From NCBI GenBank assembly GCA_951406725.2, contig OX597817.1, forward strand, positions 73,780,001 through 73,844,000: a DNA stretch of 64,000 bases, in the 5' to 3' direction. This DNA comes from Octopus vulgaris. Lineage: Eukaryota. Position numbers and translations under genes: made by a program. Positions 13,543 through 40,585 of the stretch are shown piece by piece (the stretch's first letter is position 1; every line of letters begins with the position of its first letter). The notes under the pieces were generated by a model that saw only the letters and a program-made list of their open reading frames with translations, did not search any database and was not told the DNA's origin.

Positions 13543-14255
13543 CCAAGGAAAATAAGTAGCGATTCTGATACACGAAGAAATGATCAAGCTAAGTAACAAT
13601 TTATTAAGAAAGAACTATCCCCAAAATATACTATCCGTTCCATCTATGAAGAAAAGAGAGGATGAAGCCCATCAACTGACCACAGTCTGTCTACCCTATG
13701 TGAAAGGCCTCTCCGAAAAGATACAAAAGATATGCGGCCCGTATGACATCAAGAGAATATTCAAGAGTAATACAACACTTCGCAAATATATCCTTCGAGT
13801 AAAACCAACAATAGAAGAGAATAAGACCAAAAACTGTGTGTACTCCATCCCATGCAGCTGTGGTAAGAAATACAAAGGCAAAACATGCCGACCCCTCAAA
13901 ATAAGGGTAGGGGAACATCACAAAGCTGTGACACAAGGAGATATTGATAAATCTGGTGTTGCTGATCGTGTATGGAAAAATGGAGACCAGCTCCCTCTGG
14001 GATGAAGTTAAAATAATAGACAGAGAACACCACTGGAAAATACGAAAACTAAAAGAAGCGGCACATATGCTAGGACACAACAACCTCTTAAACAGAACGT
14101 GTGCAGATATGAATAGCACATGGGAACCGGTATTGAGGAAGGTTAGGAGAATATTAGATTTATAAGCCCTAAAATTCACTCCTTAATTGACCACGGACAT
14201 TATGGCGTAGCGGTTAAGATGCCAAGATTCCGAGTTCAATTCCAGGCAGTGACCT
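13543..14255 (+). mobile_element. 5'-truncated Penelope/Poseidon-type PLE (thumb, GIY-YIG, start of pLTR)
   Basis: LPYVKGLSEKIQKI...KNCVYSIPCSCGKKYKGKTCRPLKIRVGEH...; a frameshift near 13990 leads to WDEVKIIDREHHWKIRKLKEAAHM..LLNR. A tRNA-like A/B box lies at 14203-14243. Confidence 0.88.
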
Positions 14256-14299
14256 CAATCTCAAGTTTTAAAACAAAACAAGTTTTAAAACAAATATAA

Positions 14300-15040
14300 T
14301 TTTTTTTTAGACATTCACTAATACAAAACTAAATACAAAACCAAATATATGGCACACTAGGCATAACAACAACACGAACTTCCAACCTGTTGTCTCTTGA
14401 GGTCTCTGGGTGAGACTTGGAGCCAACTTGTACAAATATAAAGCAAAAGTCAAACATAGAATAATAATAATAATAATAATAATAAATGCCCTGATGCAGT
14501 ACCAGGCAGTGGCTTTCATGGCTTCTGATCTTAACTGATTGGAAGTGTTATCATGTACATTGTTTTGTCTTGGTATAAAAGATGGGTTAAAGCAAATATT
14601 CTGCTCAATACCACAGATTTGCTTGTCAGTTGTTTGATCTTAACCAGTTGAGCATATCTCTTAGTGGCTGACGATATGTGCATCTTTGATCACAAGCAGA
14701 AGTAGTGGGGGAGCATCAGAGCCATGTGTTGAAGGGAAATATTAGGGGCTTGGATAATTCACGTTTGGAAACATGGGTGTTTCGTTCATCATCCTTAAAC
14801 AACCCTTATTCAGGGACCTTTTGAGCGGAATGGGTTACTCAACCAGAAGCAAATTCTAACTGGGCCCCACTTGCAAGGTCATGAGCTGTTTATCTTGATA
14901 TGAGATCCCCATGTCGCGCACATATGGTTGTGCTGCATGTACCTAGTGTACCCTTATGAGACGGGTTGTCATGATGGGTATACAGGGCTTCGTATATTTT
15001 ACTCTAGTGTCACTTTGATGGCATGCACTACTCTCTCACA
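14300..15040. mobile_element. Insertion(s) splitting the Poseidon-type pLTR: a LINE-like 3' end with (AAT)n tail plus an unclassified ~560-bp repeat
   Basis: Sequence contiguous in the 40135-40585 copy (B box-GACC-(AAT)n-AACATCG) is interrupted here; (AAT)n occurs at 14459-14482 and 15041-15051. Confidence 0.6.
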
Positions 15041-15231
15041 TAATAATAATAACATCGGAAAAATACCTTAGGTTCGAAAATACCCAGGTTCAAAAATTCC
15101 CCCAGGACACCAGATGAAGGCTGGAGAGTACATCAGCCGAAACGTTGTGTTAACAACAAACGAGATGAGGACAAATATCGGTCAAATGTAAATAATGTAC
15201 GTAATTCCTTATCTCTCAAATATAGAACTGC
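15041..15231 (+). mobile_element. Remainder of the Poseidon-type pLTR
   Basis: AACATCG.AAAATACCTTAGG...GATGAGGACAAATA..GTCAAATGTAAATAATGTAC matches 40441-40584 and the reverse complement of 22355-22510. Confidence 0.85.
15106..15151 (+). ncRNA. Minimal type-I hammerhead motif (U4A lesion)
   Basis: GACAC-CAGATGA-A-GGCTG gagagtacat CAGCC-GAAA-CG-TT-GTGTT. The sister copy at 22414 has CTGATGA. Confidence 0.7.
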
Positions 15232-15354
15232 ATACTATTATATTTAATGGATAATAAGGGAATATAATGCACATAGCCAACACACAGTGTGTGTGTGTGT
15301 GTGTGTGTGTGTATCAGTGTGTATGCATATATATATATATATATATATATATAT

Positions 15355-15718
15355 AGCAAAAATTTAGATTAAGATGAATGTGGTACTTAAGTTGAGGCAC
15401 CAGAATTTAGTACTGTATTATCCATACAATTTCAAAATAAGGTGATTAAAATCAAAATAAGCAACAAGGCTATCCAGAAGTAATGCAGTACTATCGTTTC
15501 AAGCAACTCTATTTAATTGAACAATGCAATCATTATATTAATTTAAATGCAGAGCAATCCTCAGCTGCATAAATACATAGAATTTAATTAAATGAAAAGA
15601 GATGTTTTAATTCAATTAAATTCTATGTCTTTATGCAGCTAGGATTGCGATGCATTTAAATTGATGTAATGATTGCATTGCACATTTAAATGGAGTTGCT
15701 TGAAACGATCGTTCGCAT
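15355..15718 (-). mobile_element. PLE pLTR fragment with fold-back inverted copy (arms 15483-15598 / 15605-15718)
   Basis: ATCGTTTCAAGCAACTC...CAGCTGCATAAA.ACATAGAATTTAATT is mirrored by AATTAAATTCTATGT.TTTATGCAGCT...GAGTTGCTTGAAACGAT; abuts (TA)n at 15328-15355. Confidence 0.72.
15483..15570 (-). ncRNA. Type-I hammerhead-like motif, long stem II
   Basis: Minus strand ATGCAG-CTGAGGA-[57 nt]-GAAA-CGATAG-TA-CTGCAT. Stem I is a perfect 6 bp, but the base of stem II pairs poorly. Confidence 0.62.
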
Positions 15719-37874: not shown

Positions 37875-38090
37875 CGGCGGCGAGCTGGCAGAATTGTTAG
37901 CACGCCGAGTGAAATGCTTAGCAGTATTTCGCTCGCCGCTATGTTCTGAGTTTAAATTCCGCGAGGTCAGCTTTGCTTTTCATCTTTTCGGGGTCGATAA
38001 GTTAAGTACCAGTTATATACTGAGGTAGATGTGATCGACCATCCCCACTCCTCAAATTCCAGGCCTTGTGCATATAGTAGAAAAAATTAT
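37875..38090 (+). mobile_element. Meta-type SINE
   Basis: GCGGCGAGCTGGCAGAATTGTTAGCACGCCG...TTTCATCTTTTCGGGGTCGATAA. Confidence 0.8.
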
Positions 38091-38221
38091 TTAAGTCTAG
38101 GAGACCAATGCAGTTATATTTTGCTATTACTATGCCGTTACTTGACATTTTCACACGGTATACGCTGCAATGTACTGGTCAAAATAGGAATAAAAAAATC
38201 AAAACAATAATGTACAATATT

Positions 38222-38630
38222 GATTTCAAATTTTGGCAAGGTTTGCAATATTGGAGAGTAGGGTAGGTCGATTACATCGACCTCAGTGCTGAATTGGTAC
38301 ATGTTGTAAAGGCTAAGTCGACCTCGGCCGAATTTGAAATCAGAACATAAAGACCCACGAAATGCCGCTAAGCATTTTGTCCGGCGTATTAACAATTCTG
38401 TCAACTCACCATCTTAAACCGCTGTGAAATATTCCTTTCTGCTATGGTCACAAAACCTGAAATTATTTGAGAGAGGGTGTAAGTCGATTACATCGACCCA
38501 ATGCTTGGCTGATACTTGTTTTATCGACCCCGAATAGGTGAAAGTCAACCTTAGTGGAATTTGAAGTCAGAATATAAATTCCGCTAAGCATTGTGTCCTG
38601 CGAACTAAGGACTCTGCTAGCTCGCCATCT
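38222..38630 (-). mobile_element. Two tandem Meta-type SINEs (38222-38415, 38445-38630)
   Basis: Each carries GTCGATTACATCGACC...GAATTTGAA.TCAGAA...CCGCTAAGCATT. Confidence 0.72.
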
Positions 38631-40134
38631 TACGCTGATGTAAAATATGTCAAACGAATAAGTGCCAAATAAAAAAAAAGAAGAATATGTTGAAAAGATT
38701 AATCATAGATTTTATATATTCTGTGGCACCATCCACAGGGAAAAAATAGTTAAAACAGTGTTAACATATAATGTAGCAAGTATTGTAAATCATATTTGAA
38801 ACATTTATGAGGACAGAAACAAGACATTATCACAATGACTAATACCATTTTAATGGTTTCGGAGACATTTCCATCTGATTAGACCTTCTCTGCAAAACAT
38901 AGACTTCGTCATTAAGAACAATTATTCGACATAGGTATATATTCAATTAAGATGAAAATATCGATTTTAAAACAGATTTAAATGAGTGAAGTTCGATCAA
39001 CTGCTAAATGCAATCAACAGATAGTACTCGAGAATAAGTGAATTTATACAAACATTTATATGAACATACACACACACACACACACACACACACACACACA
39101 CACACACATTTATGCATGTATTTACATGAAGTGTTATAAGCATATATGTATGTATATATATCTAACATAAGTATATATATAAGCCTGTGTATATGTGTGT
39201 GTGTGTGTGTGAGTCGCTTTTTTAGTTACGCTTAGAGCGAGTAATAAAATTATTTCTCAAAATACAGCAGGATTTCTTTTTTTTAAGCAAAAATTCTACA
39301 AGAATGCACAGCTTTAGTGCTGTCTTTACTGAAGTGCAGCCCAAAGCTAAATTTATTAATGATGCACTCTGCGGCCTTAAGTCTACACAAACACGGAAGA
39401 AGTGAATTTCCCGACGTCCCACCATATAACGCAATTCTAGTTTAGCGCGAATATATGTACACACACACATGCACAAACACACACACACGTATGTATATAT
39501 ATATATATATATATATATATATAGAGAGAGAGAGAGAGAGAGAGAGAGAGAGAGAGAGAGAGAGAGAGAGAGTAGTTTAAACTATTTTAAAGGCAGTGTT
39601 TTGGAAGTGAGGTGGTTTTATATATAGCAACAGTGACAAGGTTAATCTCAAAGAAAACCGAAACGAAATTATTTTATAAACAAATAATCATATATATATA
39701 TATATATATATATATATATATATATATTGGCAGACAGACAGACATGTGATAGGCGCGGAAATGACTGTAAGGTTAAGAAGATCGCAGCATCTTGAGAGAT
39801 GTCTTCTACTACAACCCCAGGCCAATCAGTGTCTAGTGAGAATGAATTTCTTATACGGAGACGGATAACAGTGGAAATCCGTCCTGTATATGTATGTATG
39901 TATGTATGTATGTATGTATGTATGTATGTATGTATGTATGTATGTATGCATGCATGCATATGTATGTATGTATGTATGTATGTATGTATGTATGTATGTA
40001 TGTATGTATGTATGTATGTATGTATGTATGTATGTATGTATGTGTGTAATACGGATCAGAAGCGCTAAGCAGTGATTTATATAAATATAAACTTGTTACC
40101 AGTTCAAATATGTTTGAGACACGTTCGAACCCTT

Positions 40135-40585
40135 AAGAAGCCCTCCCCCTGTGGGATGAAGTTAAAATATTAGACAGGGCACACGTCTGGAAAATTCGAA
40201 AACTAAAAGAAGCAGTACATATGCTAGGACACAACAACCGCCTAAGCAGACCGAGTGTAGATATGAGTAGCATATGGGAACTGGTATTAAGGAAGGATAG
40301 GAAAATATTAGATTTATAATCCCTAAAATTCACTCCATAATTCCCCACGGGCATATGGCGTAGCGGTTAAGAGCGCGATCTACTAACCCTAAGATTCCGA
40401 GTTCGATTCCAAGCAGTAACCTGAATAATAATAATAATAACAACATCGAAAAATACCTTAGGAATGTGAGCCCAGGTTCAAAATTTCCCCAGACGAAACC
40501 TTGTGTGGACAACGACCAAGATGAGGACAAATAGCCATCAAATGTAAATAATGTACATAATTTCTCATCTCTTAAACATACTGCA
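40135..40585 (+). mobile_element. Poseidon-type PLE 3' end with tRNA-like cassette; hammerhead core deleted
   Basis: WDEVKILDRAHVWKIRKLKEAVHMLGHNNRLSR...ILDL* is homologous to 13990-14165. A box at 40356-40366, B box at 40399-40410, and GAC^GAAAC fused at ~40494. Confidence 0.85.

Follow-up and report, generated by a model that had tools for sequence, protein, structure and literature searches.

A tRNA-derived A/B-box head in the pseudo-LTR of a Penelope/Poseidon-type element of Octopus vulgaris, and short copies that begin at its edge

Short interspersed elements (SINEs) are defined as RNA polymerase III (Pol III) RNAs that are moved by long interspersed elements (LINEs), and those derived from tRNA start 13 nucleotides (nt) before the A box. 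Pol III promoters within terminal repeats have been described for long terminal repeat (LTR) elements that are non-autonomous (PMC10886601; published work is cited from excerpts throughout). Insertions of Penelope-like elements (PLEs) have as hallmarks an inverted arm, a tail on one side only and a target duplication (PMC8557442, PMC3846280). Here we describe a PLE family of Octopus vulgaris, starting from three copies in a window of 64,000 nt, an A+T-rich and microsatellite-rich stretch of contig OX597817.1 (73780001-73844000) in a genome of 2.8 Gb and 227 contigs. All three copies are of one Penelope/Poseidon-type family with a reverse transcriptase (RT) and a GIY-YIG endonuclease. Its pseudo-LTR (pLTR) carries a tRNA-derived head with A and B boxes, and most head-bearing arms of its insertions begin at the 5′ edge of that head.

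The majority sequence of the family served as a working reference, in which ‘A’ runs from the open reading frame (ORF) to the end of the head and ‘B’ covers the pLTR past the microsatellite; the stop codon ends at A2296, tRNA position +1 is A2326, and T8 of the A box is A2333. Read from the stop codon, the order is 30 nt, the tRNA-Arg-like head with its A and B boxes, (AAT/AAC)n, an ATG, a minimal type I hammerhead and a 25-nt tail. The ATG between the microsatellite and the hammerhead starts the ORF, whose frame continues through the hammerhead and the tail. The majority ORF has 831 amino acids (aa), with one short gap artefact, and its near homologs, the closest of which share 55-68% identity, have 826-858 aa. 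One homolog with 55% identity (P0003) has the same N-terminal pattern, which argues that the ATG/hammerhead layout was inherited. The hammerhead itself has a 5-bp stem I, CUGANGA, stem II, GAAA and a palindromic ACGU stem III, matching the minimal type I form described in PMC4209133, and CUGANGA is present in 90 of 131 arms. Rfam matched neither a tRNA nor a hammerhead over 40300-40620 and, among the matches listed for the whole window, gave solely microRNA matches driven by microsatellites.

The GIY-YIG peptide of the window has 150 scored matches in the genome at 68% identity or more. At one locus (L141), an open frame of 569 aa holds both an RT (RVT_1, E 2.7e-06, under the Pfam cut-off) and the endonuclease; the GIY-YIG motifs were identified by eye, the Pfam model giving them no score. 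The linker contains no CxxC in L141 or in the majority ORF, unlike that of a second PLE in the window (16963-18681). Since the lack of a CxxC finger in the linker is a criterion for Penelope/Poseidon (PMC8557442), the predicted protein places the family in this group. The family is present in 7 of 80 random 10-kb stretches, which translates to very roughly 25,000 loci, most of them without ORF sequence. Several members (L343, L353, L355, L359, L362, L365 and L370) have internal deletions that fuse the first 400-900 nt of the ORF to the 3′ end, and are non-autonomous derivatives with a pLTR on each side.

In a comparison with 10 tRNAs of the genome, in which TCT and TCG were the Arg isoacceptors, the head was closest to tRNA-Arg(TCT) and tRNA-Arg(TCG), with 49/73 identical positions and z above 8; the runner-up was Ala with 47/72. 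The head is not a tRNA gene: ARAGORN called no tRNA genes in the window, and no cloverleaf fold of the head was found, its acceptor stem being unpaired. Exact or CpG-tolerant motifs of 25-33 nt gave 2521-3310 matches in the genome and their reversed controls none, so the cassette is not a product of chance. The sequence-only reading, an earlier annotation made from the letters of the window, had allowed for the case that the consensus boxes are degenerate; the majority A and B boxes are intact, and both fit the consensus in 77 of 120 short arms. At one locus (L012), five to six tandem units of head plus (AAT)n, with ~100 nt of unrelated sequence between them and no hammerhead, make up a head-based local satellite.

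The head is fixed in the family. When 30 loci were chosen with no criterion other than the GIY-YIG protein, BLAST detected a head immediately behind the 3′ untranslated region (3′UTR) in 22; three of the other eight hold remnants visible by eye, three have deletions with differing breakpoints, and two stop earlier. All 30 loci chosen by an exact 3′UTR 33-mer, a set that includes a few segmental duplicates, run into the head, with the hammerhead part downstream. The earlier claim that the cassette is a family trait and not a chance SINE insertion is thus borne out, and no head-less ancestral allele was seen among these loci. DNA contigs of four other organisms cover the ORF, the head and the hammerhead, one of them spanning ORF and head, which speaks to presence only. 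No B box was found in four metagenome PLEs (34-38% identity); these are too short and divergent for dating the capture. Eight arms found by the B box had no hammerhead part; those inspected mostly had LINE pieces in the (AAT)n or a broken 3′ half, and two remain unexplained.

The 5′ ends were scored in the first 93 of 3310 exact matches to a hammerhead 28-mer, all on contig C1, with no selection on the 5′ end; the set counts both arms of a few insertions. Of these arms, 32 start within the 14 nt at the head edge (A2318-2331) and 8 upstream of it; a further 12 have their start inside the head, 23 within the microsatellite and 18 in the 3′ part of the pLTR (B10-80). In other words, 40 arms reach the 5′ edge of the head and 32 of the 40 begin within 14 nt of it. 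The truncation rate per nucleotide of 0.115 at the edge (binomial P ~4e-34) is about 30 times that of the neighbourhood, which is 0.0038 within the head and 0.0023 upstream. When the B box served as the anchor (2689 matches, of which the first 30 were scored, with 4 loci common to the hammerhead set), 24 arms started at the edge, 4 inside the head and 2 upstream, such that 24 of the 26 reaching the edge stop there. Both sets show the peak at the tRNA-like 5′ end, free of ORF sequence, for which the sequence-only reading had proposed to look. Across the genome, the first 25 nt of the head occur 2521 times, a 28-mer spanning 3′UTR and head 360 times and a 3′UTR 33-mer 490 times, counts whose ratio is rough given the differing lengths and degeneracy of the motifs.

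The edge is a G located 13 nt upstream of T8 of the A box. A second start mode lies at tRNA +1 (A2326), and many arms retain the 6-nt leader upstream of it. On its upstream side the edge is hard. The 77 arms that start at A2300-2331 adjoin an inverted head (28), a fold-back (14), an inverted 3′ piece (17), flanking sequence (17) or 3′UTR (1); the 3′UTR therefore stands directly before the edge in 1/77, and flank or an inverted 3′ piece without a palindrome in 34/77. A perfect 20-nt fold-back palindrome centred on the edge was found at 494 loci, a 20-mer that the template does not contain. Of 30 loci with an ORF start, three keep a whole upstream head; one of these (L354) begins at the edge and two (L345 and L352) further upstream, indicating that longer tandem RNAs exist.

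The short insertions have a PLE-type structure. An inverted upstream partner accompanies 63 of the 93 arms, and the 25-nt tail is on exactly one arm in 56 of 61 pairs with both 3′ ends scored. Target duplications of at least 8 nt flank 33 of the 57 insertions with two arms, with a length of 12-13 nt in 19 cases, compared with 3.5% of shuffled pairs. Two subfamilies defined by linked variants are present in ORF-linked and short arms alike, which makes the short form the family's own pLTR; differences in variant frequency between the two kinds of arm are confounded by the sampling of the sets. What had been proposed as a ‘PLE-mobilised SINE’ therefore stands as to its SINE-like starts and PLE-form insertions and falls as to a SINE lineage of its own. 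The label ‘retrozyme-like’, given in the same place, is a poor fit, most copies being dispersed insertions of one or two arms that are flanked by target duplications, with direct tandem pLTR units in only a few of the 93 arms (e.g. L180, L200). Hammerhead cleavage was also considered as the source of the 5′ ends and rejected, the cut site not being enriched (7/68, P=0.27).

We favour, with a probability of roughly 0.6, a cycle in which Pol III starts at the edge, RT runs off the RNA, the complementary DNA (cDNA) folds back, and the family's RT and endonuclease integrate the product. A small SINE would once have inserted 30 nt past the stop codon of a master element. TFIIIC would then bind the A and B boxes and Pol III initiate at the G that precedes the A box by 13 nt, yielding a short RNA of head, microsatellite, hammerhead and tail; because the pLTR has no run of four Ts, this RNA would continue past the hammerhead. 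At the 5′ end of the RNA the RT would run off, and the cDNA end GGGC would often fold onto GCCC and prime itself, giving rise to palindromic junctions. By copying the short RNA into new sites, the family's RT and GIY-YIG endonuclease would turn the pLTR into a ‘self-SINE’. The hammerhead and the ATG before it would be ordinary inherited PLE features that do not determine the ends of the RNA being copied.

Several observations weigh against such a cycle. No Pol III transcript was found: three RNA sequencing runs, from one study and possibly from another species, gave no start or end peaks. Reads on the family (11151, 8497 and 7806) fall equally on both strands and ~80% of them run into unlike sequence, a pattern compatible with or without a short Pol III RNA. 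A free-standing donor SINE consisting of head and (AAT)n only was not found, and the comparison contained no head-less sister family. Within the last 500 nt and the pLTR, no other short hairpin is as strong or as rich in G+C as the edge sequence TGCCC-AC-GGGCA. The ratio of observed to expected runs of four Ts is 0.26-0.47 in other LINE-like ORF clusters, against 0.44-0.54 in the family. Furthermore, a second repeat with a minimal hammerhead, which has no A or B box at 50/50 loci (L379-L428, the first 50 of 2207 exact matches), is sharp-edged as well: of 36 arms extending as far as 70 nt upstream, 31 stop within 10 nt. A sharp 5′ edge is thus not specific to tRNA heads and by itself no proof of Pol III. 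This box-less repeat is short and pyrimidine-rich, with an edge ~73 nt upstream of the motif, usually within (AT)n, and no link to an ORF was found; it may be a PLE derivative of the non-autonomous kind. Microhomology could account for its edge, an ATATG motif beside (AT)n.

Two further counterpoints come from the literature: PLEs are already known to have solo pLTR copies, 5′ palindromes and pLTRs whose 5′ ends are fixed (PMC3846280), and the pLTR of D. virilis Penelope contains an internal promoter of its own (PMC2377424). Both speak for a different origin, as does the sharp edge of the box-less repeat, namely that the short copies are ordinary solo pLTRs from a Pol II promoter in the pLTR, with the head a passenger or else co-opted, the start lying at its edge. 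In addition, an ORF of 831 aa needs translation, normally from a Pol II transcript, as has been argued for the partners of TRIMp3 elements (PMC10886601). However, a start that owed nothing to Pol III would have come to lie 13 nt before an intact A box, with the B box 45 nt on, which is a close coincidence in a pLTR of ~270 nt, and the intactness of both majority boxes likewise tells against this origin. We regard it as unlikely.

We are similarly doubtful of a larger role for Pol III, in which the head replaced the Pol II promoter of the pLTR and Pol III transcribes the whole 2.6-kb autonomous element, which thereby spawns its own SINE. In its favour, the ATG lies just past the head, the upstream pLTR of L354 begins at the edge, and the majority sense strand has 0 runs of four Ts in 2622 nt, where 4.7 are expected. 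On the other hand, of the three copies that have an ORF start and a whole head before it, two begin further upstream, runs of four Gs are absent too, and other LINE-like ORFs are equally poor in T runs. As proof of Pol III read-through the T-run depletion was rejected as non-specific, with P=0.009 under a mononucleotide, 0.05 under a dinucleotide and 0.16 under a synonymous-codon model.

A third possibility, to which we give little credence, dispenses with a special short RNA. Here cDNA from long RNAs would snap back at TGCCC-AC-GGGCA (or an antisense template would prime itself), and opening of the hairpin would scatter the ends over 14 nt. Self-priming has been proposed for PLEs (PMC3846280), and the G+C-richness of the edge hairpin, the 494 exact fold-back palindromes and the 42/77 edge arms that adjoin an inverted head or a fold-back are all consistent with it. 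Yet a similar hairpin of 5 bp with a 2-nt loop at B27-38 stops only 7/86 arms (8%), compared with 32/40 (80%) at the edge, and 34/77 edge arms have no palindrome. Moreover, the same fold-back would result if the cDNA ended freely at a genuine 5′ end of the RNA. Finally, RNase P could cleave a long Pol II transcript where the tRNA-like part begins, releasing a 3′ piece that serves as template. This would suit the second start mode at tRNA +1 but is very improbable in view of the leader kept upstream of +1 in many arms, the unpaired acceptor stem and the missing cloverleaf.

None of the three window copies has an intact cassette (Table 1). The sequence-only reading had located the copies, boxes and hammerhead modules correctly throughout; tRNA +1 lies 30 nt after the TAA in both copies said to have a head ~30 nt past the stop, and the third copy does start just past the B box, at ~22622. 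Copy 1 is missing 14 nt between the boxes, is split by ~780 bp of foreign LINE ends and has CAGAUGA as its hammerhead core. Copy 2 has lost the hammerhead core to a 32-nt deletion at ~40492. Copy 3 has neither box and runs on the minus strand from (AAC/AAT)n into the hammerhead. Both pieces of the insert in copy 1 recur at many loci, end in (AAT)n and lie downstream of LINE C-terminal ORFs in L223, L058 and L188; from protein motifs, these LINEs are likely R4/Dong. The (AAT)n of the element is often hit by (AAT)n-tailed LINEs, which separate head from hammerhead in many copies (besides copy 1, L005, L016, L018, L021, L027, L117, L140, L158, L215, L237, L257, L263, L271 and L274). Copy 2 is flanked by inverted-repeat arms of ~30 bp (40088-40130 and 40680-40720), and was therefore probably inserted into a small terminal inverted repeat element.

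Table 1. Parts of the three family copies, in window coordinates
Feature	Position	Strand	Details
Copy 1, 3′ part of ORF	13541..14165	+	linker and GIY-YIG endonuclease; frameshift near 13990; TAA 14163-14165; 88.9% to family majority over A1665-2399
Copy 1, tRNA-Arg-like head	14189..14257	+	+1 at 14195; A box TGGCGTAGCGG at 14203; B box GAGTTCAATTCC at 14232; 14-nt deletion between boxes
Copy 1, foreign insert	14258..15040	+	two nested 3′ ends of (AAT)n-tailed LINEs within the element's (AAT)n
Copy 1, (AAT)n and 3′ half of pLTR	15041..15230	+	hammerhead 15106-15151 (core CAGAUGA); 25-nt tail ending AGAACTG
Copy 3, 5′-truncated pLTR	22363..22622	-	final 16 nt of head; (AAC/AAT)n 22605-22508; ATG 22487-22485; no tail
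Copy 3, hammerhead	22459-22414	-	intact CUGAUGA/GAAA core
Copy 2, end of ORF	40142..40319	+	last 180 nt; TAA 40317-40319
Copy 2, complete tRNA-Arg-like head	40343..40423	+	6-nt leader with predicted Pol III start at its first base, 13 nt upstream of A box (40356); +1 at 40349; B box 40399
Copy 2, (AAT)n and 3′ half of pLTR	40424..40580	+	32-nt deletion of hammerhead core; partial tail

The window contains other elements as well. The second PLE, at 16963-18681 on the plus strand with a 3′ region to ~19250, is Neptune-like, with a frame of 572 aa holding RT, a CxxC linker and GIY-YIG; a variant hammerhead-like motif lies near 19180, and its 3′ region has no B box. A search with this element (16963-19250) as a control family gave no candidates. 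Two more decayed PLE-like fragments were recognized from ORFs on the minus strand, at 42200-44006 and 6772-7614, neither with a Pfam match; the former has a hammerhead-like motif downstream of the ORF end. By eye, the ORF fragments at 19769-20200, 48815-49354 and 55168-55575 resemble Tc1/mariner and hAT transposases. Elsewhere in the genome, a tandem series of single-ORF genes of ~390 aa that look by eye like seven-transmembrane receptors (L146-L151, C18:46.25-46.40 Mb) was found, each gene preceded by the same rearranged copy of the tRNA-head PLE.

If the favoured cycle is correct, the ideas of the SINE and of the terminal-repeat Pol III promoter would extend to PLEs, with the promoter inside an autonomous element, and parent and parasite would be one sequence. 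The family would also offer a handle on the poorly understood insertion cycle of PLEs. Self-priming models, with cDNA fold-back set against an antisense template, would become testable, since its two-armed insertions number in the thousands and combine a defined RNA start and a fixed fold-back junction with a tail on one side only and duplications of 12-13 bp. For annotation, loci of the family would be split or misnamed as tRNA pseudogenes, SINEs or simple repeats.

Full-text literature searches, which did not extend to Repbase, Dfam or SINEBase, found no PLE with a tRNA-derived pLTR, and the excerpts of PMC13282606 with its supplement, PMC7229834, PMC4824008, PMC8967140 and PMC4758252 contain none; the sequence may thus already be catalogued in one of those databases under a SINE or a Penelope name. 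The octopus SINE families OK, OR1 and OR2, cited in PMC4824008 and PMC4758252, are tRNA-derived as well, and one of them may be the present sequence. With the endonuclease-bearing (EN+) Penelope/Poseidon elements described in PMC8557442, PMC3846280 and PMC4209133, the family shares a single ORF of RT and C-terminal GIY-YIG, a linker without a CxxC finger, and a pLTR that holds the first ORF codons and a minimal type I hammerhead. It also shares their 5′ truncation, inverted 5′ arm, one-sided tail, target duplication and palindromic junctions. It differs from the elements as described in these excerpts in the 5′ part of the pLTR, which is a tRNA-derived A/B-box head plus (AAT)n and forms the edge of most head-bearing copies.

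The nearest analogues are the TRIMp3 elements, Sm-alpha of Schistosoma and the retrozymes derived from pLTRs. In carrying a putative Pol III promoter from a small RNA inside a terminal repeat, probably following a SINE insertion, the family resembles the TRIMp3 elements Cassandra (5S), Helenus (tRNA) and Ajax (5S), in which, too, the boxes are retained and the tRNA fold is lost (PMC10886601). TRIMp3 elements, however, are non-autonomous LTR elements with a primer-binding site and a polypurine tract, and their autonomous partners are argued to have no Pol III repeat (PMC10886601), whereas the present head sits in the pLTR of an autonomous PLE, joined to the RT/GIY-YIG ORF, with no true LTR pair. 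In Schistosoma, Sm-alpha as well as Sj-alpha repeats likewise join a tRNA-derived Pol III head to a type I hammerhead, in a repeat that is short and high in copy number (PMC6765202, PMC2770079). They are tandem repeats freed by ribozyme cleavage, and the excerpts name no PLE partner, unlike the octopus unit, which is the pLTR of an identified PLE and has ends that are not set by the ribozyme. Non-LTR retrozymes (bioRxiv 10.64898/2026.07.22.740005) and non-autonomous PLE derivatives such as MRC1 (PMC8557442) are also short, hammerhead-bearing repeats derived from pLTRs and thought to use PLE enzymes. By definition the former are tandem repeats whose units each carry a hammerhead, and the excerpts report no tRNA head (bioRxiv 10.64898/2026.07.22.740005); the octopus family, in contrast, is mostly not in tandem, and self-cleavage does not set its ends. 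The family is neither a retrozyme nor a terminal-repeat retrotransposon in miniature (TRIM).

Also comparable are the tRNA-derived SINEs (SINE2), which have an A/B-box tRNA head, a 3′ part in common with an autonomous partner and a non-coding short form, and with which the family shares copies that begin at the 5′ end of the head and contain no coding sequence. Unlike in these SINEs, the partner is a PLE and not a LINE, the 3′ part is a PLE pLTR, insertions are two-armed, no CORE-like body lies between head and microsatellite, and the short form has no lineage of its own. The short form thus works like a tRNA SINE, but fails the features of a LINE partner and a separate lineage.

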